A stretch of DNA of 64,000 nt from an uncultured delta proteobacterium (GTDB taxonomy: Bacteria > Desulfobacterota > Binatia > Binatales > Binataceae). The stretch's first letter is position 1. Each line of letters starts with the position of its first letter. Under the pieces are notes generated by a model. The model was not told where the DNA came from, did not search any database, and saw only the letters and a list, made by a program, of their open reading frames with translations. Shown one piece after another: positions 10,618 through 31,215 of the stretch. Made by a program: the position numbers and the translations under genes. The stretch covers positions 1 to 64,000 of the forward strand of contig CAWEEQ010000001.1 in assembly GCA_963808235.1 (NCBI GenBank), written 5' to 3'.

Positions 10618-10752
10618 TCGCCCGATTGAAATTGAGTCAACCCGCGGGTTCCGGACTGGCGGCTGATTAGATTAGCGTCGTGCGGGCGGCGGTGCGGGCG
10701 GCAATCGAGCCGAGCGTTGGAACAGCATCGCGCGCGGTGTCCATTCGCCGCG

Positions 10753-11193
10753 GCGACCGCACGGTTGCGGTTACTCGTCATCTACAAAGCTTTGAGGGTG
10801 AGAGAGGCTGGCCAGAAATAGAAATACGTCCGGATTTTTGTTCAAGCCGAGCGCCGCCGTTCCTCGGCACGGGATTTTTCGATCCGATGTCATTCAATTA
10901 ACTACTTTTGATTGCGGATCGTTGGTCAAGCGGCGCGCGACGCACCTCACGCCGACAGTAAGCCCATCAATTTATGTAGGTCAAAGCGACCGCACGCGGC
11001 CCATTCCGAAGGGCCTCTGATATAGATGGCCACCGCACGCTCCTGGAGGCTGCAAACCGGCCTGACAGGCCTTTGATATCATTCGGATTTTCTTCAAAAC
11101 CGACACATAAAGTTACACATTTTCACATGTTGGATTATGAAAATCGAATTAATTCGCATGGTTATGACTAAACTTAAGAGACTTAAAATTCTC
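10753..11193. repeat. Copy A of ~440-bp non-coding direct repeat ending in tRNA-Leu anticodon core
   Basis: Aligns by eye along its length with 19101-19550 (shared blocks e.g. CAGAAATAGAAATACGTCCGGATTTTTG and CCGACACATAAAGTTACACA). Confidence 0.92.
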
Positions 11194-11235
11194 GGGAGGG
11201 CAACCTCCGTGCGGGTTCGAGTCCCGCCCCCGGCA
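11179..11235 (+). pseudogene. 3' half of tRNA-Leu(TAA); att-site remnant
   Basis: GACTTAAAAT anticodon loop, GGAGG-GCAA-CCTCC variable arm, GCGGG-TTCGAGT-CCCGC T arm, CCCCGGCA acceptor strand; no D arm or 5' half upstream. Confidence 0.85.
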
Positions 11236-17296: not shown

Positions 17297-18172
17297 TCAG
17301 GTGTCAGTCCAGCGCGGCAGGTGCGTCGAGAAGGGTGCGCCCGACAGTGCCGCCCGGAGCTCGCTGACGAATTCTCGCGCTGCTTGTCGCCCGTTGGGGA
17401 ATTGGTCGTTTCGATCCCAGCGCCATGCTGCGAGCATCGCAAGCATCAGGACCCGGCATTCGTGGAGCAGTTGTTGATCGGTGCTCCGGTAGAGCACGCT
17501 CACCTCTTCGGGCACGTAGGCGAGATCGAACTCGACGGGCCCGCGGCAACAGGTTTCGAGGTCTATGAACCGCAGGCCCTTCTTCGTCCTGAGCACGTTG
17601 CCCGGGTGTGGCTCGCCGTGCAGGAGTTGTTCGGGGCGCCCGCGGGCGCTGATCGCTTGCCGCAGACTTCGTAACGTGTTGCTGAGAAGCTCACGGTCCG
17701 CGTCAACGAGCTCTGGAGTCTGGTCGCGGCTTCCGATAAGCCGTTGGGCGTCGGTGATTCGATCCGTAAAGTGCGGTGTAGGGAAGTCGATCTGCCGCAT
17801 GCAGTCATGCAGCCGTTCGAGCGCGTGCGCGTAGTCGGCTGGCGCGAACTCTCGGGACGGCACAGGTTCGTAGTAGGTCCACAGCGTGACCACAAAGCCG
17901 TCACGCAAGTAGACGCCCGGCGCGACCCGAGGCTCAAGCGCTGTTACGGGGCTCCCGGTATCCGCGAGCCGTAAAGCAAGCTCGACTTCGAACTCCGCCC
18001 AGCGCTTGATGCGCTCCTCCGCGACCCGAGCAAGAACGTCGCACGGCAGCACGCGCACAGCGAACTTGTTCGACTCCTGGAGCACGATCGCATCATCGAC
18101 TGTTAGGCCAAGCGCTGCCGCAGCGCCCATCGCCGCGGCGACCGCACGGTTACGATTACTCGTCGTCGACAA
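17297..18172 (-). CDS. Aminoglycoside phosphotransferase/kinase-like (APH) family protein
   Basis: LLHGEPHPGNV and FIDLE kinase motifs; RAVAAAM...SNK N-terminus; start uncertain (TTG 18172). Confidence 0.85.
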   Translation of the reverse strand: MSTTSNRNRAVAAAMGAAAALGLTVDDAIVLQESNKFAVRVLPCDVLARVAEERIKRWAEFEVELALRLADTGSPVTALEPRVAPGVYLRDGFVVTLWTYYEPVPSREFAPADYAHALERLHDCMRQIDFPTPHFTDRITDAQRLIGSRDQTPELVDADRELLSNTLRSLRQAISARGRPEQLLHGEPHPGNVLRTKKGLRFIDLETCCRGPVEFDLAYVPEEVSVLYRSTDQQLLHECRVLMLAMLAAWRWDRNDQFPNGRQAAREFVSELRAALSGAPFSTHLPRWTDT

Positions 18173-18178
18173 GGCTTT
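18138..18178. repeat. 41-bp motif, third copy (others at 19101-19141 and 10753-10793)
   Basis: GCGACCGCACGGTTACGATTACTCGTCGTCGACAAGGCTTT; 39/41 identical to the 19101 copy. Confidence 0.9.
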
Positions 18179-18244
18179 TCTGCACGGCTCCGGGGGTCCT
18201 TCTAACCGGGGAGCTTCGCGATGGCAGTTCAAAAGCGGGCGGTG

Positions 18245-19030
18245 TCATGACTTCGGAATTCTGTGAGCGCGCTTGAGCCGTGAGGCGAGGTGGTCCAAAT
18301 CGCCATAGATACTGAATTCGTCGACCCCCAAGAGAATCAGCTCATGTAGTAGAGTGTTTTTTGCGCCCGACGGAATAGTGTATTTCTTCAACGACTTGTT
18401 GTGGGCGGGAGTGAGCTCTTCCCTACCGGGCACGTGAAACGTGAAGCAGCTTCGCTGAAGCACAATTCTCAAGTCCGAGTAGTCGGGCCGTAACGCCATT
18501 ATGAAGTCGGGGAACTGAGACTGGGGTTTGGGTGCCCAAGCACAGATCGCGTTCAAGGCCTTCTGAAACGCTGGATGACGCATCGTTACAACGCCTTGGT
18601 AATGCTTGTCTTTCGTGTTCTGCGTGACTGCGAGCTGATATGCGTCCATGAAAAAGAGAGCACCATCGACCTTTTCGCGTTCCGAGCAGGCGACGAACAA
18701 TGCCGCTAACGGATTGGTCGTCCAATCCAGCAGTCTGGTCGGCAGTCCGTAATGTTGTTCAAGAAAATAGAGCTTGTCGTGCTGGTGGCTTCCTTCGATG
18801 AGGCCAGCCGATTCTACTCGAAAATCCTGAGCCAAGTGGTTTTCGAGTAGAATTCTTTCCCACTCCTCCTTCGCCGGAAAATTTGGCCGATAGACGCCTG
18901 GATGGAGCTCCCAGTCCTTGTTCGCTTGACCGCGCCACCACCATCGGACGTGCGGATGAATATCTCCTTTCTTAATTCCGCGAACGAGTCCGATCAGGTC
19001 GTCGAGACTCTCGATTTTATCTTTGGCCAT
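18245..19030 (-). CDS. FRG domain-containing protein
   Basis: WWRGQ, QHYGLPTRLLDWT.NPLAALFVAC, RIVLQRSCF motifs; more AT-rich than flanks. Confidence 0.9.
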   Translation of the reverse strand: MAKDKIESLDDLIGLVRGIKKGDIHPHVRWWWRGQANKDWELHPGVYRPNFPAKEEWERILLENHLAQDFRVESAGLIEGSHQHDKLYFLEQHYGLPTRLLDWTTNPLAALFVACSEREKVDGALFFMDAYQLAVTQNTKDKHYQGVVTMRHPAFQKALNAICAWAPKPQSQFPDFIMALRPDYSDLRIVLQRSCFTFHVPGREELTPAHNKSLKKYTIPSGAKNTLLHELILLGVDEFSIYGDLDHLASRLKRAHRIPKS

Positions 19031-19100
19031 TTGTCGTCCCGTTGCGCTTACCTGAGGAACGTGCCGTCTGCAGCCCGCACTGCTTTAGCCGCGCGGGCGA

Positions 19101-19550
19101 GCGACCGCACGGTTACGGTTACTCGTCATCGACAAGGCTTTGAGGGTGAGAGAGGATCGCCAGAAATAGAAATACGTCCGGATTTTTGTTCGAGCCGAGC
19201 GCCGCCGTTCCTCGGCACGGGATTTTTCAATGCGCTGTCACTCAATTAACTACTTTTGATTGCGGATCGTGGTCAAGCGGCGCGCGACGCACCTCACGCC
19301 GACAGTAAGCCCATCAATTTATGTACGTCAAAGCGACCGCCTGCGGCCCCTGCCGAAGGGCCTCTGATATAGATGGCCACCGCGCGCGCCCGGAGCTTGC
19401 GAACTGGCCTAATAGGCCTTTAGGACCAATCGGATACCCTTCAAATAACCTCAAAACCGACACATAAAGTTACACACTTTCACATGTTGGAATATGGAAA
19501 ACCAATAATTTCGCATGATTAGAATCAAACTTAAGGGACTTAAAATCCTC
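19101..19550. repeat. Copy B of ~440-bp non-coding direct repeat ending in GGGACTTAAAATCCTC (tRNA-Leu anticodon arm)
   Basis: Aligns with 10753-11193; similarity drops right after the anticodon arm. Confidence 0.92.
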
Positions 19551-19566
19551 TGGAGTGCGCTTCTCG

Positions 19567-21020: not shown

Positions 21021-22839
21021 ATCTGTCTCGAACTGCCATCCGATACGAATTGAGTTCCGGTTCAGCCGCGGTGCTGCTGCGCCTCTACCTTCGAGTCCAG
21101 CTGCTCTGGATTCTGACCTGGACGGCTTCCGATCTTTTCTTCGTCTGGTACTGGAGCGGCCGCCTCTCGGGACCCGGCGCCCACGAATACTTCGGGCGCT
21201 GGATTCTCGCCTGGTTCTTCACCCAGAAGGTCCCGCTCTATTTTCTGTCGCTCCCGTACAAAGGCGGTCGCGCGACGATCGGAAGTATGTACGCTTACCT
21301 CAACTGGCGTTTCTATCAGGGGCGCTCGTTCGGACAGTGGTTCGCCTCATACAGTGTCTGGGGCGCGGTACCGGCATGCCTGACCCTCGTCGCCGGGTAC
21401 TTCATTCTCGGCGATCCCGAGGACCGTCCCGAGGGGAAGCATCTTCGAGGCCTCACGTCTGATCCCGCCGCGCCAGCTGTCACGCGAACTTCGCCGCGCC
21501 GGATTGCGGAGCGACCGGGCGGGAGTCGAGCTTGCTCGGGTGCGCATTCCGCGCTCGACCGAGTGCGAGCATTTCCTCATCACTGGCGCGACGGGAGCGG
21601 GAAAGTCGATGGCGATCCGCTCGCTGCTCCGCCAGATCCAGGCTCGCGGCGACCTTGCCATCGTGGTCGATCCCGAGTGCGAATACGTCTCCGAATTTTA
21701 TCGTCCGGCGCGCGGAGACCTGATCCTGAACCCGGTCGATGAGCGCTGTCCGTACTGGTCGCCGTGGCTGGAATTGAGCGAGCGGTACTACCAGGCGGAC
21801 GCGGCGACGCTCGCGGCTTCTCTGATTCCCGAACCTCCGCGCGGCTACGAAAGCGGGTCGGATCACTTCTTCCGGCAATCCAGCCGGACTCTGCTCGAAA
21901 GCCTGCTTCAGAGTCGCCGCACCGCGAGAGCCGCAGAGCATTCCGAAGCTGCTCGAACTCAATCGCGATCAGTTGAAGCAGGCGCTGTCCGGCACGCCGG
22001 CATACAGCCTGATCGATCCCGGCGCGCACGAGCAGGGCGCCGGGATCATCGCGACCGTCGCCAACGCGACCCGACCATTCCTCTATCTGCCGCCCGCCGA
22101 CGGACGACCGCCGTGGAGCGCGCTGGAATGGTCCGAGCATCCCGAAGGATGGCTGTTCGTGACGATGCGCGACGAGTCCAACTCGGCGGCGCTGCCACTC
22201 GCGAACCTCTGGCTCGACCTCATTGTCGGCCGCCTGCTCAACTCCGCCCGCCATCGGCGAAGGGTCTGGATCGTGGTGGACGAGCTGCCGGTGCTCGGCC
22301 GTCAGGCGAAGCTCGAGACGCTGGTAACTCGCGGACGCAAGCGTGGACTCGCCGCCGTGCTGGGGTTCCAGAGCATCGCTCAATTGCGCCGGATCTATGG
22401 CCACGAGCAGGCAGCAGTGCTCGCGTCGATGCCTTCGACCAAGCTCCTACTGCGGGTGGACGAGCCCGAGACGGCAGCGTTCATCGCGCGGCAGATCGGC
22501 GATCGCGAGGCGTTGCGTGAGGAGATCGGGATAAGCACCGCCGAGCACGGCAATCGGTTCAACATCCATCCTGCGCGCCGGACCGAGCCGGTCGTGATGG
22601 CGTCCGAGATCCAGCGGCTGCCGAAGCTGGAAGGCTATCTCTGCATCGCCGGACTCGATCGTGCGCGCGTCAAAGTGAGGCCGTGCGTTCCGCACCGGCG
22701 GCAGGTCGAGTTCATTCCGCGCGCTCTTCCGAGGCCGGTCATCAATGAGCCCAGCGCCGATTTGGCGGCGCTGACGATCAGTCGCGGGCCGATTCCGCCG
22801 AACGGGACCGCGGGCGCTCCGGTGAGGATTCAGGACTAA
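21017..22839 (+). CDS. Type IV coupling protein (TraD/TrwB-like), frameshifts ~21460 and ~21915
   Basis: N-terminal TM helices, HFLITGATGAGKS, WSPW.E, VDELP, GRKRG...GFQS, VMASEI..LP. Confidence 0.88.
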
Positions 22840-25572
22840 TGCTGGTAATGTCCAAAGGCGCGCTCACCGCCGCCCAGGCCGAGACCTACTACGAAGAGAA
22901 GTACTCGCACGACGACTATTACTCCGAGAAGCAGCGGGTCGTAGGACAATGGTTCGGCCGTGGCGCTGAGGAGTCTGGGACTGTCCGGCGAGATTGCGAC
23001 CGAAGACTTCCGCGCCGTGCTGCGCGGGCTTCGCCCTGCCTCCGGCGAGGTGCTTGTTCACAAGGCGAACGGCTACGACGACCGGCGCGCCGGCTGGGAC
23101 GCTACCTTCAACGCGCCGAAGTCGGTGAGCATTCAGGGGCTGGTCGGAGACGATCACCGCCTTATCGAAGCGCACGAAAAGGCAGTCAGTCGCGCGCTGG
23201 TGGAACTCGAACAATATGCGCTCTCGCGGCGCCGCGGGGGCAGCGAATGGGTCGTGACCGGCAATATCGTCGCCGCGCGTTTCGATCATATCGCGGCTCG
23301 TCCCGCCAGCGGCGTTGAAGACGGCTACGGTCCCGACCCTCACCTCCACACGCACGTCGTCATCGCCAACATGACCCGGCGGCCCGATGGAGAGTGGCGC
23401 GGCCTCGATCCGATCGAGATCTATCGCGCGCAGAGCCTTCGCCACCGCAGTTTACCGCTCTGAACTGGCCCGAGAGGTTCAACAGCTCGGATACGAAATC
23501 AGGATCGGCGGTCGAGACGGACGATGGGAGCTGGACGGCTACACGCGCGAGCAGGTGATGGCGTTCTCCCGTCGTCGCCAGGACATCGAACGGACGCTTG
23601 CGCGTGAAGGGCTGGCGGGCGCCGAGGCGGCGCAGAACATCGCGCATCGAACGAGGCTCTCTAAGGATCATCGCGACGAAGAGAGTCTCAAGGCGGAATG
23701 GCGCTCGCGCGCGCAGACAATATGGTATCGGAGTCGAGCGCCAAATCTCGCACTCGCGCGAGCGTGGGCCGCTCCAACTTCGACCTCCGGAAAAAGCCGA
23801 GGAAGCCGTCCGCCACAGCATCGAGGAAAACACCGAGCGCGAGGCGGTCATCGACCGCCGCGCCCTTGAAGCGAAGGCGCTGCAGCATGCGATGGGAGCC
23901 GTCGACCTCGAACAGATACGGACGGAGAGCAAGCGGTTCGAGAGAAGCGGCCTTTTGATCGCGGTCGGCGACGCCGTGATTTCGCCGCGAGGCGCTTACA
24001 CGACGCCGGAGATGATCGCCCTTGAACGCGGGAACATCGGACTGATGCATGCGGGCCAGGGCGGGGCCGCCGCTATCGGCAGTTTGAACGAGATTCGCCG
24101 ATGGGCGAGCCAGCGCAACTTGCTTCCTGATCAGACTGCCGTCGCCGAACTCACGCTGGCGTCCACCGACTGGATCACCTCAATCGAAGGCCGCGCCGGC
24201 GCTGCGAAGACCACGACGGTCGGCGCGATATGCGAATTCGCGGTAAACCAGGGCTATGCTGTCTACGGGTTCGCGCCAACGACGCGTGCGGTCAAGTCGC
24301 TTTCGGAAGCAGGTGTTTCTGCCAGTACAGTCGCCAGCCTCCTCGAAAGGCAATCAGCACGCGACGCCTCAAGCGAAGTCTGGATCATCGACGAGTCGAG
24401 CCTGCTCCCCACGCGCCAGGTTAACCGGCTTCTCCGCAAGGCTCGCGAGCAAAGCGTAGAGCGGATCGTCTTTGTGGGCGACCAAGCGCCAGCATCATGC
24501 GATCGAAGCGGGACGGCCCGTCTATCAGATGCAGGAGGCCGGAATGCTGGTCGCCCGGCTCGATACCATTCGCCGCCAGCGCGATCCTGAGCTCCGCGAA
24601 GCGGTGACGCTCGCCGCCAGAGGCGAAGTCGCGGAGTCGCTCGCGATTCTTGACCGCCGCGGCGACATCCGGGAAGTCTGCGACATCGAACAGCGCCGTA
24701 AACAGATTGCGCGCGAGTACGTTGCTGCCCATCAATCCGGGGAGCGAGTTCTGGTCGTCAGCCCTGCAAACGAGGAGCGGCGAGAACTGAACGGAGCGAT
24801 CCGCGCCGAGATGATCGAACGCGGTCACGTTAGTCCGATCGAGCAAGAACATACGATTCTGGTTAGCCGAAATCTCTCGGGCGCACAGCGCGCGATCGCT
24901 TACAACTATGAAGAAGGCGACGTGATTCGCTTCACGCGCGGAAGCAAACAGTTCGCGATCGCCAAAGGCGCCTATGCGCATGTCGAAAAGCTCGATCGCG
25001 ACGCGAACATGCTCACGGTGAACACGGGCGACGGGCGGCGCATCGAGTACAATCCGGTCCGGCTGTTCGGTGTCGAAGTCTTTCGCGAGGAACCTCGAGT
25101 CCTCGCACAAGGCGACCGAATACAGTTCCGCACACCCGACCGGGCACTTGGCGTTGCCAATGGCGATTTCGCCACAATCAAATCCATCGACGCTCGCCGC
25201 GCCCTTTTGCGCTTGGACAATTGCAAGGAGTTGAGCGCCGCGCTCGATCGTCTCAACCACATCGACCACGGCTACGCTTCGACTTCGCACTCCGCGCAAG
25301 GCGCAACCGTCGATCGCGTGATCGTCGATATCGATACGCGCCTGTCGCCTGAGCTCGTAAATCGCAAGCAGTTTTACGTGTCGATCAGCCGCGCGCGAAA
25401 CGCGCTCGCAATTTATACCAACGACCGCGCTCAGCTCCCTCGCACCGCGAGTAGGAGCCGCGAGAAATCAATGGCCATTCAGCATTCGACTCCAGCGCCC
25501 CGACATAGCTTCACCATCTTGCCTGACGGCAATCGCCAGAGTTTCAGTCGCGGTCACGGAATTCGACGATGA
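22839..25572 (+). CDS. MOBF (TrwC/TraI-like) relaxase-helicase, split by ~4 frameshifts
   Basis: YY...DDYY N-terminus, DATFNAPKSVS, DPHLHTH, FSRRR; helicase motifs GRAGAAKTT, IIDESS, HGYASTSHSAQG, FYVSISRAR. Confidence 0.92.
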
Positions 25573-25629
25573 ATCAAAGGGGTTTGTGTCGCTCGCAAAC
25601 TACAGTTCGTTGTCGGTCGGGTCTGCGCC

Positions 25630-26643
25630 CTAGGTTGTGAAAACTTTGTGACCGAAGAGATCTCGGCTCAGCCTTTCGAGTGAGAACTGGTTCCGCTCTC
25701 GGATGCTCTCTTCAACGATTCGCATCAAGGCAGACGCTGTGAGAAGATCCACGCTCCTAATCGGCGAATCTGCCAAGTATTCCGTTAGCTTTTTCAGGTC
25801 CCCATCTTTGAACGATGGGCCAACAACAACAAAGTAGAGCTTATCAAAACCCTGGCGCTGCAGGTCGGCCCCTCGGTCTCGGGCGTATTCCAAGAATTTT
25901 CGATCCTCGGTGCCCAATATATAACCTCCGGACCGGACCTTGGCGTCCACGATCACGGCAAATCGATCGCGAGGTGCGAGCGCGACAAAGTCGGGCTTTC
26001 GTCCGGTACCTTGACCGAATGGCGAAATCTCGAATCCAAGACAGCGAAATGCATCAGCCGTTCGTCGTTCAAAAAGTGTGCTCAGACTCAAATCGCTTGT
26101 CTCGAACGGAACTTGCTCGCCTCGCGCTAGTACGTCCAAGTACTGAAGGCACTGCGGCAGAAATGGATGAAAGCCCGGCGCCGGAGTCGTCCCTCTGCTC
26201 GGCCTGCTCTGATGGTCACGGTTTGCGAGGCGCCACCAATCGTAGTCTAGGATCTGTTGTAGTTCCGGCTCTGTAGTTCGAAGCCATTGTCGAAAATGGA
26301 CATCGAACTCCCTCTCTCCGCCGAATCTCTTCTTGACCGTGCTGGTCTTAGCTCCAAGTTCTCTCTGTGCGATAAGAAGCTCGCCGCGCGTGGGTATCTT
26401 GCCGAGATGCAGGCAGATTCGAGCATATTCCCGAAACACAGTTTCATCTGGCAGTCGATTGTCAAACTTGTTTGCCGTCGCGCCGGCTTCTTTAGCAAGA
26501 GCGCTCCTTGTGGGCCAATAGTAAGACACCTCGCTTTCTTTGACCCCCGTCATCTTGCAAAACACCGCCATTCCAGGCGTCCGGCCGAGCTTTCTCTGGC
26601 AGGCGCGAAAAAGGTCTAAGATTTCCTCCCGGCTTTGCCGCAT
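25630..26643 (-). CDS. Helical-repeat (homing-endonuclease-associated repeat-like) protein fused to a FokI-like PD-(D/E)xK cleavage domain
   Basis: Two N-terminal ~60-aa repeats (KLGRTP, HLGKIPT..E); C-terminal FE...LGF...G..RKPD...VIVDAK..SGGY.L. Confidence 0.7.
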   Translation of the reverse strand: MRQSREEILDLFRACQRKLGRTPGMAVFCKMTGVKESEVSYYWPTRSALAKEAGATANKFDNRLPDETVFREYARICLHLGKIPTRGELLIAQRELGAKTSTVKKRFGGEREFDVHFRQWLRTTEPELQQILDYDWWRLANRDHQSRPSRGTTPAPGFHPFLPQCLQYLDVLARGEQVPFETSDLSLSTLFERRTADAFRCLGFEISPFGQGTGRKPDFVALAPRDRFAVIVDAKVRSGGYILGTEDRKFLEYARDRGADLQRQGFDKLYFVVVGPSFKDGDLKKLTEYLADSPIRSVDLLTASALMRIVEESIRERNQFSLERLSRDLFGHKVFTT

Positions 26644-27088
26644 GCGGAGCAGGATGCCATCGCACCGCCTGCCCAACAAGCCCGTCTCAGCACCTCATCG
26701 GATTTCCGCTCTGCGGATAGGTGCGGACCGGCTTTGAGTGCCTTCTATCGGTGGCGCTTGCTTCACTGGCACGCCGTGCCACCGGCTTCCGCCGGACGCT
26801 TAGCTTGTCACGCCGTGCAGCGTTCCGCTTCGCGCGTCTCGGAATCTTGCACGCGCCCTCAGGTTCGGGTGAAGGGCGCGCGCCTTCAAAATGGTGCGGA
26901 ACCCGAAGAACAGAATCGCGTCCTGCCCCTGCGGAGAAGCGGACGCAATCACACCTGCGTGGTTGGTCTGTCATTGTGGATTTCTGTAATTCTGAGATTG
27001 TGGCTTTCGATGAATTTTCTTCCAGATTCCGATAATCTTTAGCGGCAGGAGGCGGCGAGCGGCGGGTTGCTGACGCTGATAAACTTGA

Positions 27089-27418
27089 ATGAAGAGTTTC
27101 GGTCAAGTGCTTAGGGAGGCTCGGAAAAAGGCCGGGCTTACACAGAGAGAGCTTGCCGCGCGCTTGAAGCGCGAAGACGGGCGTCCAGTGGACCCTCCGT
27201 ATCTCAATGCGGTCGAGCACGATCACCGCTATCCGCCCGAGGACTACCTGATCCAGCAGATGTCGAAGATTGTCGGCATCTCGCCGGATGTGCTGTACTT
27301 TCACGCGAACCGCCAGCCGCCGGACGTGAAGACCGAGGCGGACCAGGAACGACTCGAAGCCGCTTATCGTGCGTTCCGCAAGGCGCTGGGAGTAAAACCG
27401 GCCGGCAAGCGAAAATGA
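27089..27418 (+). CDS. XRE/Cro-type HTH repressor (ImmR-like)
   Basis: FGQVLREARKKAGLTQRELA...YLNAVE. Confidence 0.88.
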   Translation: MKSFGQVLREARKKAGLTQRELAARLKREDGRPVDPPYLNAVEHDHRYPPEDYLIQQMSKIVGISPDVLYFHANRQPPDVKTEADQERLEAAYRAFRKALGVKPAGKRK

Positions 27419-28086
27419 AGTTGCTTCGCGATCCGCTCGGACGCCCAATCAAGCGTCTTTACTTCAAGGCGGAAGAGCTCGACGAGCGATGCGAGCAGCT
27501 CGTCGCGGACTTCATGCGTCGTCACTCCGGCGGCTACAAACTGCCGATTCCCACGGACGACATAATCAGGATGATTGAGGCAGAAGCCGACGACCTCGAT
27601 ATGTATGCCAACCTGCCTGAAGGACAGGACGGATACACCGACTTCTTTTTCGACCGAAAGCCCCGAGTGAAGATCTCTGCGCGGCTTTCGGACCCACGTT
27701 ATGAGAACCGGCTTCGCTTCACTCTAGGCCATGAATACGGCCATGTCTGGTTTCACGCTCCGCTCTGGAGAAAAAGCGCACAGGAACCAGACTCCCCTCC
27801 CGTCGAGCCATCTTGGACCTGCCATCGAGAGAACATCGAGACCGCGGCTGAGAACGACTGGATGGAATTCCAAGCGGGCTACATCGGCGGGGCACTGCTG
27901 ATGCCAAAGTCAGAACTTTCGATAATGGCGGGCGAGATTGCGCTGCGTGAGAGCGAGAAGCCGCCACTTAGAGTCGATTCAGAGCTCGGCCGCGCGGCGA
28001 TCGAGCGGATTAGGCGACGTTGCCAGGTCTCCGAGCAAGCCGCGCGAGTCCGGCTATTTCGTTTGGGCCTTCTGACCGAATCGTGA
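27415..28086 (+). CDS. ImmA/IrrE family metallopeptidase
   Basis: RLRFTLGHEYGH (HExxH), EFQA...ALLMP, VSEQAARVRL; ATGA overlap with XRE. Confidence 0.9.
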   Translation: MKLLRDPLGRPIKRLYFKAEELDERCEQLVADFMRRHSGGYKLPIPTDDIIRMIEAEADDLDMYANLPEGQDGYTDFFFDRKPRVKISARLSDPRYENRLRFTLGHEYGHVWFHAPLWRKSAQEPDSPPVEPSWTCHRENIETAAENDWMEFQAGYIGGALLMPKSELSIMAGEIALRESEKPPLRVDSELGRAAIERIRRRCQVSEQAARVRLFRLGLLTES

Positions 28087-28147: not shown

Positions 28148-28203
28148 CCACCTTGACGATGGGTAAATGACCATCGCACTCAATGGATCGAGGTGTTGTC
28201 ATC

Positions 28204-28440
28204 ATGTCAGTAGTTCAAGTCAGTTCCCAAGCTCAAGGCGCAGATTCGGAGAGGCTGAGTACCCCAAAACTCGGCTGGACCCTGGACGAGCTAGCCCGCA
28301 GCCTCGGCGTCTCGGTTCCGTTTCTCCGGCTCGAAGTGAAACGTGGCCGGTTACGCGCGGCGCACTTAGGGCGGCGGATCGTGCTTCTCGATACCGAGGT
28401 ACGTCGCTACCTGGCCGAGGCGAGCGATCGCGCGGCCTGA
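28204..28440 (+). CDS. Excisionase-like HTH protein
   Basis: WTLDELARSLGVS...GRL.A..LGRRIV, immediately upstream of the integrase. Confidence 0.8.
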   Translation: MSVVQVSSQAQGADSERLSTPKLGWTLDELARSLGVSVPFLRLEVKRGRLRAAHLGRRIVLLDTEVRRYLAEASDRAA

Positions 28441-28463
28441 AGATTGTGCAGGGAGCTAACGCG

Positions 28464-29639
28464 ATGAGTGTTTATAAACGGGGCGAGATGTACTGGTTCA
28501 AGTTTCTGTTCCAAGGGCAGCTCATTCGAGAATCGGCCAGGACCAACTCGAAGACGGTCGCCCGCGAAGCGGAACGCGCTCGTCGCCGCGAGATCGAGCT
28601 CGCGGTTAACCGCATCCCAAAGCGCGAGCGGATGCCGCTCTTTTCGGTTGCCGCAAAAGAATGGTTGGCCAGTCGAGTGGGTCTCGCGGCCAATACACTC
28701 GACACGTACGAGCATTTTGTTGAGACTCTCACCGAACAATTCGGAAAGCGGCTCGTTTGCGACATCGACGACCAAGACATCTCGGTGCTTCAACGCAAGC
28801 GACTGACCGAAGAGAAATCGGCGCGGACGGTGAATTTCGAAATTAACGTATTGCGCCAAATCCTCAAGGCTCACGGGCTGTGGGGAACGATCTCGGACAG
28901 GGTGAAAAGCCTTCGAGAGCGGCGCGATGTCGGGCGCGCGATTAGTTCCACAGATGAGAAGCGGCTGATCGACGCAGCAGCGAAGAGCCGCTCGCCGGCC
29001 CTTCTTCCCTTGTTGATTGTCAGCCTGGACAGCGGGCTACGCGCTTCCGAGATACGATCGTTGCGCCGACGCGATCTAATGTTGGAGTGGCGCAGCGGCG
29101 TAATCGAGAAGGGCGTACTCACGGTTCCCAAGTCAAAGACGGAAGCCGGCACTGGACGCAGCGTGCCGCTCACGTCCAGAGTCTGTGCGATCCTGACGCT
29201 GTGGTTGTCGCGTTTTCTCGAAGCCGAAGCCGACAGTTATGTATTCCCGCGCTTTTCGGTCGGCTTAGAGGGTAACGCTCGTCGCCCCAAGTTCTATGCG
29301 GCCGACCTTGCACATCCAATCGGTGAATGGAAAAAGGCTTGGAAGATCGCGTGCAAGGCGGCCAAGGTTCAATATCGCTGGCACGATTGCCGACATACGT
29401 TCATCACCCGCCTGGCTGAGAACCCCAACGTCAGCGAAGAAACGATTCGATCCCTAGCCGGGCACGTCTCCCGGAAGATGCTCGAACGTTACAGTCACAT
29501 TCGGATTTCCGCCAAACAGGCCGCGATCGCGACCCTCGATCAGGCGGTTTCCGCCGTTGGAGCGGAAGAGCACCAAACGAGCAGGGCACAAAATTGGGCA
29601 CAATCTGCAGCGGTCGGAAAACGAGATCTTCCTAACTAG
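28464..29639 (+). CDS. Tyrosine recombinase/integrase
   Basis: SGLRASE (R), KSKT (K), WHDCRH (HxxR), LAGH, RYSH (Y); ends 10 bp from tRNA CCA. Confidence 0.95.
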   Translation: MSVYKRGEMYWFKFLFQGQLIRESARTNSKTVAREAERARRREIELAVNRIPKRERMPLFSVAAKEWLASRVGLAANTLDTYEHFVETLTEQFGKRLVCDIDDQDISVLQRKRLTEEKSARTVNFEINVLRQILKAHGLWGTISDRVKSLRERRDVGRAISSTDEKRLIDAAAKSRSPALLPLLIVSLDSGLRASEIRSLRRRDLMLEWRSGVIEKGVLTVPKSKTEAGTGRSVPLTSRVCAILTLWLSRFLEAEADSYVFPRFSVGLEGNARRPKFYAADLAHPIGEWKKAWKIACKAAKVQYRWHDCRHTFITRLAENPNVSEETIRSLAGHVSRKMLERYSHIRISAKQAAIATLDQAVSAVGAEEHQTSRAQNWAQSAAVGKRDLPN

Positions 29640-29649
29640 TTGAATTATT

Positions 29650-29727
29650 TGGTGGACGCACCTGGACTCGAACCAGGGACCTCTTGCATGTGAGGCAAGC
29701 GCTCTAACCGGGCTGAGCTATGCGTCC
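29650..29727 (-). tRNA. tRNA-Val(CAC)
   Basis: GGACGCA acceptor, TAGCTCAG D arm, CTTGC-CTCACAT-GCAAG anticodon arm, GGTTCGAGTCC T loop, encoded CCA. Confidence 0.96.
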
Positions 29728-30486: not shown

Positions 30487-30498
30487 GTGCGGAGACCA

Positions 30499-31215
30499 AT
30501 GAAGCTGTACGACGAACTTGCTGAGTGGTGGCCGCTCTTTTCCGCGTCCGCGAACTACGAGGAAGAGGCAGCGATCTTTGCGAAGCTGCTGATCGATTCC
30601 TGCCAGCCCGCGCCGCGAACGCTGCTCGAGCTCGGATCAGGCGGCGGCAACTGCGCATCCTGGCTAAAGCAGAGTTTCGAAATGACGCTCGTCGACGCGT
30701 CGCCGCAGATGCTCGCGGTCAGCCGCGTGCTTAATCCCGAATGCGAGCATCGCGAGGGCGACATGCGCACCGTCGATCTTGGACGCACATTCGACGCGGT
30801 CTTTATCCACGACGCGATCATGTACATGACGAGCAGCGCCGACCTGGCCGCGGCAATCCGCACCGCGTTTCGGCATTGCCGCGCGGGAGGAGTGGCGCTG
30901 TTCGTTCCGGACTGCGTGCGGGAAACGTTCGTCGAGGAGACTCGTCACGGAGGACACGACGGCGACGACGGCCGCAGCCTGCGCTACCTCGAATGGACTG
31001 TCGATCCGGATCCGACCGACACCACATATCGAACCGACTTCGCGATCATGCTGCGCGATCGCGGCGGCGACGCACGCGTCGTGCACGATAGTCACGTCGA
31101 GGGTCTCTTTCCGCGCGCCGAATGGATACACATCTTGCGCGAAGTTGGATTTGCCCCGAGCGTTACGAATGACAAGTGGGGACGGGAACTGTTCGTCGCA
31201 AAACGACCTGGGTAG
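30499..31215 (+). CDS. Class I SAM-dependent methyltransferase
   Basis: LLELGSGGG, VD.S..ML, GDMR...LGRTFDAV. Confidence 0.9.
   Translation: MKLYDELAEWWPLFSASANYEEEAAIFAKLLIDSCQPAPRTLLELGSGGGNCASWLKQSFEMTLVDASPQMLAVSRVLNPECEHREGDMRTVDLGRTFDAVFIHDAIMYMTSSADLAAAIRTAFRHCRAGGVALFVPDCVRETFVEETRHGGHDGDDGRSLRYLEWTVDPDPTDTTYRTDFAIMLRDRGGDARVVHDSHVEGLFPRAEWIHILREVGFAPSVTNDKWGRELFVAKRPG

Follow-up and report, generated by a model that had tools for sequence, protein, structure and literature searches.

A stand-alone fusion of helical repeats and a FokI-type nuclease domain on a mobile element of an uncultured Binataceae bacterium

What might a FokI-type nuclease do when no methyltransferase accompanies it? 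The question is raised by a gene at 25630..26643 (minus strand) in a 64,000-nucleotide stretch of DNA from an uncultured bacterium of the Binataceae; the whole stretch is called the window here. A sequence-only reading of this DNA had described the gene product as a natural, stand-alone fusion of a helical-repeat module to a FokI-like nuclease. Fold and profile matches bore out this fusion of a helical-repeat module with a FokI-type PD-(D/E)xK domain, and we could confirm both that the open reading frame (ORF) is real and that it encodes two helical units, a disordered linker and a FokI-type domain. As to its role, we tentatively favour a restriction or defence nuclease that works without a methylase.

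The C-terminal domain is homologous to the FokI cleavage domain

The minus-strand frame is open over 25630..26679, and the ATG at 26643 gives a 337-residue protein (P0001). In an alignment of 45 homologues, this start methionine coincides with theirs. The peptide quoted in the sequence-only reading, LGFEISPFGQGTGRKPDFVALAPRDRFAVIVDAKVRSGGYIL, was found in the translation, with correct coordinates. A chance ORF was excluded, since 220 homologous proteins were retrieved at E ≤ 1e-3; the 120 listed are 53–98% identical and mostly of equal length. The AlphaFold2 (AF2) model of the window protein has a mean predicted local distance difference test (pLDDT) score of 85.2. The parts of the gene are:

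25630..26643, minus strand: whole nuclease gene, 337 codons plus stop (two HNH_repeat units, linker, FokI-type nuclease)
26476..26643, minus strand: helical unit 1 (residues 1-56), four-helix and helix-turn-helix (HTH)-like (TetR-type fold likeness; Pfam HNH_repeat)
26239..26460, minus strand: helical unit 2 (residues 62-135; HNH_repeat stretch 65-109, hhalign to unit 1)
26185..26238, minus strand: flexible linker (residues 136-153), Pro/Gly/Ser/Thr-rich (low pLDDT, variable)
25633..26184, minus strand: FokI-type PD-(D/E)xK cleavage domain (residues 154-337; VIA-align, Foldseek, profile against the PDB)
25939..26070, minus strand: catalytic core, with E192 at 26068-26070, P217-D218 at 25990-25995 and D233-A-K235 at 25939-25947

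When the model was compared with known structures by VIA-align, FokI was the best match (2fok_B; Z 16.4, root-mean-square deviation (rmsd) 3.4 Å, 169 residues aligned), residues 154-337 of the model being aligned to residues 392-579 of FokI. Nt.BspD6I (Z 13.7) and the small subunit of R.BspD6I (Z 13.3) came next, followed by a tier of unrelated nucleases at Z about 8. A Foldseek search, which the sequence-only reading had proposed as a check of the PD-(D/E)xK fold, also ranked FokI first (1fok_A, E 8e-7, probability 1.00).

Profile searches led to the same domain. The nuclease-domain profile A3 reached 516 representative clusters at E ≤ 1e-3, and the listed domain-profile matches of at least 270 residues make up the 101 representatives used throughout. 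A profile of these representatives (A4) retrieved FokI from the PDB (1fok_A, E 2.1e-8; 2fok_A, 3.3e-8; FokI residues 387-575). FokI was not found in the PDB by the window protein alone (phmmer) or by a profile of its close homologues (A1). The Pfam family FokI_cleav_dom (PF09254) matches 58 of the 101 representatives (best E 5.2e-14) and 11 of the 45 close homologues (best E 1.3e-4). The fold matches of the model, PF09254 in the relatives and the PDB match of the wide profile together establish, at the level of sequence and model, the homology of the domain to the cleavage domain of FokI and the integrity of its active site; catalysis is predicted.

The catalytic residues of FokI are D450, D467 and K469 (2fok numbering). 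Their equivalents had been said to be intact here, and they are: D218, D233 and K235 are invariant and aligned, and the profile-to-PDB alignment pairs the helix Glu, PD and D-x-K with the helix Glu, PD and DTK of FokI. E192, D218 and D233-A-K235 are invariant in the 45 homologues and at least 90% conserved in the 101 distant representatives. The stretch G244-E-D-R-K-F250 is likewise invariant in the 45 homologues, except for T245 (at least 90% conserved). In the model, D218 starts strand 218-223, DAK ends strand 228-234 and helix 187-201 precedes both, which places the motifs in a canonical α-β-β-β-α-β core.

The N-terminal module consists of two diverged helical units

Two N-terminal helical repeats had also been proposed, and Pfam places HNH_repeat (PF18780, titled 'Homing endonuclease associated repeat') on two stretches of the protein, with E 1.9e-5 and 25.4 bits against a gathering cut-off of 26. 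The best stretch comprises residues 65-109, in unit 2, whose helices in the model span residues 66-80, 86-96, 110-122 and 126-133. Aligned with each other by hhalign, the two units gave a weak match in register (E 0.002, 29 columns, probability 14%). Because the HNH_repeat match is sub-threshold and the self-match weak, we consider the repeats to be real but diverged. HNH_repeat matches 39 of the 45 homologues at E ≤ 1 and 32 of the 101 representatives at E ≤ 1e-3; one relative (P0143) scores 113 bits and has three stretches.

Unit 1 resembles the N-terminal HTH of TetR-family proteins (Z 6.0-7.9, rmsd about 2 Å over 51-57 residues). A fold search with the N-terminal half, independent of Foldseek, yielded TetR-family or putative-regulator chains in 49 of the best 50 rows. 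From the modelled folds we reasonably infer that the N-terminal units bind DNA. The linker is rich in Pro, Gly, Ser and Thr, in agreement with the earlier description; residues 140-155 have a pLDDT below 50, and the stretch varies in length and sequence between homologues. Mean column identity is 56% in the reader module and 63% in the nuclease domain, so that the two are conserved to a similar degree.

Module and nuclease domain also occur with other partners. At locus L046 (1489-2220, genome G101), a 244-residue protein carries the same two-unit module ahead of a MUG113/T5orf172 domain (E 3.5e-15); the module is 32% identical to that of the window protein over 111 residues (E 1e-11), and the genome is the one that also holds the nuclease copy of L005. 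Three further proteins (P0282, P0284 and P0285) join the module to MUG113/T5orf172. The partners of the nuclease domain in relatives include an unknown N-terminus of about 250 residues and Mrr_N (P0183), and in some proteins the domain stands alone. By Pfam, an HNH nuclease domain was found neither in the window protein nor in the 101 representatives, and longer fusions of the N-terminal module were not found, which is weak evidence. A protein of 1429 residues (P0157) has matches to the nuclease-domain profile in 22 stretches and no Pfam match, which may reflect either a tandem array or an artefact of assembly.

No intact methyltransferase adjoins the gene in the window or at related loci

As the sequence-only reading had stated, the window has no DNA methyltransferase: in whole-genome Pfam searches, in which it is C1:1-64000, PF02086, PF01555, PF02384 and PF00145 match only contigs C2 and C4 or nothing. 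The ORF at 30487-31215 is matched only by generic models of class-I S-adenosylmethionine (SAM) methyltransferases. Two D12-class and two N6/N4-class methyltransferases are encoded in the host genome, on contigs other than the window's.

We then compared 27 genomic loci, 18 with an intact nuclease gene and 9 with a broken copy or remnant. Three of the nine broken copies come from metagenome-assembled genomes (MAGs) whose indels may be assembly errors, and one locus (L024) rests on a genome flagged as unpublished. Among 149 neighbouring ORFs within 2.6 kb in 24 loci, none is a DNA methyltransferase; L001, L002 and L014 were left out of this count as they carry the same element as the window. Because the longest-ORF rule can hide genes, as it had hidden TumE in L017, all ORFs were also screened by motif. 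Five of the 511 ORFs of at least 150 residues in the 27 loci were flagged; of the three that had no other explanation, only one is real, a 150-residue N6_N4 fragment 30 nt upstream of the L018 nuclease.

This fragment is a remnant of a disrupted gene. At L018 (7521-9421, genome G125), about 1.04 kb with the nuclease gene replaces residues ~139-412 of a 556-residue N6/N4 methyltransferase with a C-terminal Mrr-like domain. Residues 10-138 are kept before the nuclease gene and 413-550 after it, and the SAM-binding motif is lost. Among 60 relatives searched, the 556-residue gene is intact in five and frameshifted, otherwise replaced or partial in six; in G162 (L069), some 1.3 kb of different sequence takes the place of its central region. 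At L012 (7742-7939), the same methyltransferase gene survives as decayed remnants ahead of the nuclease copy there. The L018 comparison indicates that the only methyltransferase beside the family is one that the nuclease gene destroyed. With no intact adjoining methyltransferase in any of the 27 loci, the family is not one that is always paired with such an enzyme.

The gene is cargo of mobile elements and of short cassettes

The neighbours of the gene in the window are:

21504..25572, plus strand: TrwB-type coupling protein (2 ORFs) and TrwC relaxase-helicase (at least 5 ORFs), Pfam
26644..27088, no strand: intergenic region of 445 bp, presumed promoter region, shared with the divergent XRE-type repressor gene
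27089-27418, plus strand: XRE-family HTH protein (Pfam HTH_3, E 3.2e-8)
27415-28086, plus strand: ImmA/IrrE M78 peptidase (Pfam Peptidase_M78, E 4e-9)
28183-28440, plus strand: excisionase-like HTH_17 protein (Pfam)
28167-29639, plus strand: tyrosine integrase ORF (Pfam Phage_integrase)
29650-29727, minus strand: tRNA-Val (ARAGORN)

Since the nuclease gene lies between TrwB/TrwC and the XRE-ImmA-Xis-Int/tRNA-Val group, we regard it as cargo that an integrative mobilisable element carries at its integration end. The TrwB/TrwC genes, whose Pfam matches (TrwB_AAD_bind, TrwC, AAA_30 and UvrD_C_2) are scattered over overlapping frames at 21504..25572, are convergent with the nuclease gene. The fraction of guanine plus cytosine (GC) is 0.57 at 25001-27000 and 0.65-0.66 at 22001-24000 in the relaxase region, so that the earlier remark on a gene of lower GC than the relaxase region and on the opposite strand was correct. 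The XRE and ImmA/IrrE proteins form the regulatory pair of the element; their link to the nuclease gene is putative. No sigma-70-like site or terminator was detected by a consensus scan of 25400-27200, and no direct repeat of the tRNA-Val end that would mark the far boundary of the element was present within 10000-30500. A sequence of about 450 bp occurs as a direct repeat at 10745-11201 and 19093-19558, the copies being 82-94% identical, and part of it occurs a third time at 18130-18178; this repeat may be related to the limits of the element. Upstream of the transfer genes, 17297-19030 contains ORFs for an APH-type phosphotransferase and an FRG-domain protein, which may be further cargo.

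The same element was found in three Binatus-like MAGs (L001, L002 and L014). Compared with L001, the nuclease gene is 96-98% identical and the adjoining relaxase half 71-79%; compared with L014, the values are 99-100% for the gene and 79-88% for its flanks. The nuclease gene is the most conserved tract of the element. The relaxase region of the window has nine single-base insertions relative to the 97.8%-identical L002, whose relaxase is a single 909-residue ORF. These frameshifts could be real decay or assembly errors, and as the two are indistinguishable, they were not used as evidence that the element is decaying. L002 and L014 share an extra T (at the equivalent of window position 25863) that frameshifts the nuclease gene, and L014 has a second indel at 25904. 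L002, with an intact relaxase and a frameshifted nuclease, is the reverse of the window. In L008, TrwB, ArdC and NikA mark the region around the nuclease gene as conjugative.

Elsewhere, the nuclease gene was found at three sites as an insertion of 1-2 kb without a recombinase, with empty sites in relatives. In the ychF/rpsF spacer of Nitrospiraceae (relatives L049-L054), 1555 nt are present in L005 (7828-9382) and 231 nt in G113. Behind a CN_hydrolase gene of Planctomycetia, about 2.05 kb in L004 (6977-9056) stand against 30-120 nt at the empty sites of G192, G197, G198 and G199, among the relatives G192-G200. The third site is the methyltransferase gene of L018, to be compared with its five intact relatives. 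Both intergenic sites are hotspots that carry other cargo in relatives, namely an IS3 element, unknown ORFs and inserts of 3.0 and 7.9 kb. At L020, the right flank is a multi-copy TPR gene.

The family is large, patchily distributed and uncharacterised

The window's genome has a single copy of the nuclease gene. Of 101 related genomes, this one included, 5 have the gene; within the genus, 3 of the 46 others do, two of them with a split match. In G054, from another genus, the match is limited to the nuclease domain, behind a different N-terminus. MAGs with the gene are labelled as Binatota, Nitrospirota, Planctomycetota, Acidobacteriota, Verrucomicrobiota, Omnitrophota, Pseudomonadota and Vulcanimicrobiota, at least eight phyla. 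There was no match among 50,697 phage records or 2.9 million viral contigs. A 180-residue stand-alone FokI-type domain, 35% identical to residues 141-316, is encoded on an archaeal plasmid from Halalkalicoccus (L028, NZ_CP144463, 172888-185403); its neighbours are a DUF262-HNH protein, a superfamily-1 helicase-like AAA protein and an Mrr_cat nuclease.

The family is already known to databases, as an ESM Atlas cluster of 124 members carries the automatic label 'Restriction endonuclease family protein', with PF09254 on 98% of the members and PF18780 on 15%. Most homologues are unnamed; a few are labelled 'Restriction endonuclease' or 'Holliday junction resolvase'. In the literature searched, which did not cover REBASE, we found no published description of an HNH_repeat plus FokI-type architecture. 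The family is therefore uncharacterised, though auto-annotated.

One clade travels with a toxin-antitoxin pair

TumE-TumA, described in an excerpt of PMC10584680 as a validated translation-targeting toxin-antitoxin system, precedes the nuclease gene in five loci, and TumA alone does so in a sixth, in a clade with support of 100/100. A TumE-TumA-nuclease block of 1,838 bp is shared with 86.4% identity by L006 (872-2686) and L007 (7274-9109), from a Bryobacteraceae MAG (acidobacterial) and a Rhizomicrobium MAG (alphaproteobacterial), and the homology ends sharply on both sides. In L007, the end of the TumA ORF is the start of the nuclease ORF on the same strand. L025 has kept TumE-TumA, and about 590 bp are missing from within its nuclease gene.

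Toxin-antitoxin or defence-like neighbours at other loci are two PIN proteins, a SoFic-like Fic protein, PDC-M63A and PD-T4-6-like kinases. Ser/Thr kinases adjoin the nuclease in L003 (1230-2150), L018 (4905-7442) and L019 (2613-4388), with strong PADLOC matches of the PD-T4-6 type (down to E 1.5e-86 in L019); in phyla rich in kinases, this adjacency may be fortuitous. All-against-all BLASTP of the neighbouring ORFs led us to reject a conserved partner gene, since only TumE/TumA (six loci), coupling proteins, kinases and TPR proteins formed groups. The small flanking ORFs were rejected as partners as well: they have no mutual similarity, and most resemble non-coding frames.

A Type IV-like nuclease is the favoured explanation

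How, then, might the nuclease act? The sequence-only reading had imagined a repeat DNA reader with a nonspecific cutter and had offered anti-phage defence, modification-dependent restriction or homing as roles; the genomic evidence is compatible with defence as well as with homing-like selfishness. The explanation that we favour, with somewhat less than even confidence, is that of a solitary, mobile, Type IV-like restriction or defence nuclease directed against modified or foreign DNA, which would do without a partner methylase. The two HTH-type HNH_repeat units would tether the protein to DNA, as suggested by their fold likeness and by the occurrence of the same module on other nucleases. The disordered linker of about 20 residues may let the catalytic domain reach DNA away from the bound site, where the FokI-homologous domain with its intact E...PD...DxK centre would do the cutting. 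By analogy with FokI, two copies would pair to cut both strands. The host would be spared by a reader that requires a mark or a long site lacking in the host, and not by a linked methylase.

Among the explanations considered, a Type IV-like nuclease fits best because the gene stands alone, its reader is conserved, nucleases are swapped behind that reader, and it is carried as cargo of elements and hotspots and is absent from the phages searched. According to an excerpt of PMC11037411, modification-dependent enzymes that need no nucleoside triphosphate follow a modular logic of reader plus cutter, and modification-specific enzymes are argued to stand alone without an adjoining methyltransferase. 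The present gene, which is stand-alone and has no protecting methyltransferase, shows this feature of Type IV enzymes as that excerpt presents it.

Several results weigh against this explanation. No SRA, EVE/YTH, PUA or DpnI-type winged-helix domain was found in the family; the 101 representatives gave only one Mrr_N and one HTH_45. The likeness of unit 1 to the TetR HTH is only middling (Z below 8), and unit 2 had no match among the fold-search rows listed. The window protein alone has no PF09254 match at E ≤ 10 (Pfam), it is matched by no NCBIfam model, and the defence models of PADLOC-DB 2.0 gave 0 families at E ≤ 10. A defence-like neighbour lies within 2.6 kb in only 5 of the 24 loci, and three of these neighbours are the Ser/Thr kinases. 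In view of the methyltransferases of the host, a broad activity dependent on N6-methyladenine or N4-methylcytosine would be self-toxic. Finally, the cassette-like insertions and the near-identical gene tract in diverged backbones fit a selfish nuclease equally well.

A selfish, free-standing cassette of the homing type is the strongest of the rivals and ranks not far behind, though we consider it less likely than not. Its repeats would read a long, rare site, the nuclease would cut genomes or elements that lack the gene, and repair would copy the 1-2 kb; in one clade, TumE-TumA would be copied along as an addiction pair, and any benefit to the host would be secondary. The Pfam title of the repeat, the presence of the same module on a nuclease of another type (MUG113/T5orf172), the recombinase-free insertions of gene size opposite empty sites (L005, L004 and L018), the methyltransferase remnants beside the L012 copy, the sharply ended TumE-TumA-nuclease block shared across phyla and the near-identity of the gene in L001 and L014 where the element flanks diverge all speak for it. 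The 9 broken or remnant copies among 27 loci would suit a cycle of invasion, decay and loss, but three of them have the possible assembly-error indels mentioned above. However, no two insertion sites are alike: the flanks differ in nearly every locus compared, without a shared target gene or sequence. The two intergenic sites serve as hotspots in general, the L018 event deleted part of the gene that it entered and was no clean insertion, and neither the phages and viral contigs searched nor any intron or intein was found to carry the gene. The reader, moreover, is highly conserved from host to host despite different flanks. The defence and homing-like explanations are not mutually exclusive. 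A bolder form, a new class of self-mobilising genes in which a FokI-type cutter with an array of two to three HNH_repeat units for a long site opens hotspots and even other restriction-modification genes and so spreads its cassette across phyla, seems to us unlikely.

A nuclease gated by its neighbours is less probable again. In this case, XRE/ImmA or TumA would control a toxin of the abortive-infection or addiction type, as opposed to a restriction enzyme directed by sequence, and the toxin would be released upon induction of the element or infection. The divergent arrangement of the nuclease gene and XRE-ImmA across the shared 445 bp is compatible with such control, as is the tight, same-strand order of TumE, TumA and nuclease in a block conserved as a unit; L025, which retains TumE-TumA yet lost about 590 bp of the nuclease, has also been counted in its favour. 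There is no universal partner, though, and many loci have the nuclease gene alone. Most candidate flanking ORFs look like non-coding frames, and the consensus scan of 25400-27200 identified no promoter or operator.

It is still more improbable that the gene encodes the nuclease of a FokI-like Type IIS restriction-modification system and that each genome has the gene for the protecting methyltransferase at another place. The catalytic domain is indeed closest to FokI and then to Nt.BspD6I and R.BspD6I, and four to five DNA methyltransferase genes lie on other contigs of the window's genome. On the other hand, none of the 27 loci has an intact linked methyltransferase, none of the 101 representatives is fused to one, the 1-2 kb cassette moves without one and the L018 copy destroys one. 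The recognition module is also unrelated to that of FokI, the alignment being confined to the cleavage domain (FokI 387-579). Lastly, a housekeeping or element-maintenance nuclease for repair, recombination or junction resolution is hardly credible: two homologues (P0072 and P0102) are labelled 'Holliday junction resolvase' in databases and PD-(D/E)xK domains include resolvases, but the matches to these are single and insignificant (Hjc in 1 of 45 at E 0.088, VRR_NUC in 1 of 45 at E 0.05), the closest fold is the FokI cleavage domain and no resolvase, and the gene is a patchy accessory (5 of 101 related genomes) that decays frequently.

Comparison with known systems

FokI is the closest known relative. 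Its catalytic domain is homologous to that of the window protein over the whole length, and both proteins combine a recognition part, a linker and a cleavage domain with a single active site; according to an excerpt of PMC2673415, FokI is monomeric and has one active site. Where FokI has a recognition region of about 380 residues, two HTH-like HNH_repeat units of about 135 residues are found here, and the FokI chains in the PDB have 576-579 residues as opposed to 337. Nothing like M.FokI, or any other linked methyltransferase, accompanies the gene. Next to FokI in structural likeness to the nuclease domain (Z 13.3-13.7) stand Nt.BspD6I and the small subunit of R.BspD6I, a heterodimeric Type IIS nicking and cutting pair that works as large and small subunit within a restriction-modification system, whereas one gene without a partner is found here.

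The winged-helix fusion endonucleases treated in an excerpt of PMC11037411, in which a winged helix is joined to HNH or GIY-YIG, also stand alone and likewise place a small reader on interchangeable nucleases. Mrr is connected through a relative of the nuclease domain that is fused to Mrr_N (P0183). The reader of the present protein is an HNH_repeat pair, and the protein has no sequence match to those families in Pfam, NCBIfam or PADLOC. Should the nuclease prove to depend on modification, its HNH_repeat pair would represent a reader domain of a new kind.

Free-standing modular homing endonucleases are of the I-TevI and I-HmuI type. These enzymes, and the HNH proteins that bear HNH_repeat, similarly join a nuclease through a linker to small helical modules that bind DNA, and homing endonucleases share the presence/absence polymorphism with insertions of gene size. 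Their nucleases are GIY-YIG or HNH, whereas a FokI-type PD-(D/E)xK domain is used here, with no phage, intron or intein and no fixed target locus seen. Site-specificity, if true, would make the family a new kind of homing-like element. The TumE-TumA-nuclease cassette is in any case an example of a toxin-antitoxin pair that travels with a nuclease, and this widespread accessory nuclease is a marker of variable hotspots and of element cargo in soil and groundwater phyla that have been little studied.

The FokI cleavage domain is the cutter of zinc-finger and transcription activator-like effector (TALE) nucleases, and natural fusions without a methylase represent the same design, reached by evolution. 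The engineered enzymes, as outlined in an excerpt of PMC3857828, follow the same principle of modular DNA-binding repeats joined to a FokI-type cutter. Unlike them, the protein described here is natural, and its repeats are HTH-like units, of which there are two in the window protein and three in P0143. With 337 residues and intact active-site residues, it and its relatives are compact candidate cutters. Were they indeed a self-mobilising class, they would be the counterpart in nature of the engineered zinc-finger and TALE nucleases, and might supply a new, compact scaffold for targeted DNA cutting.

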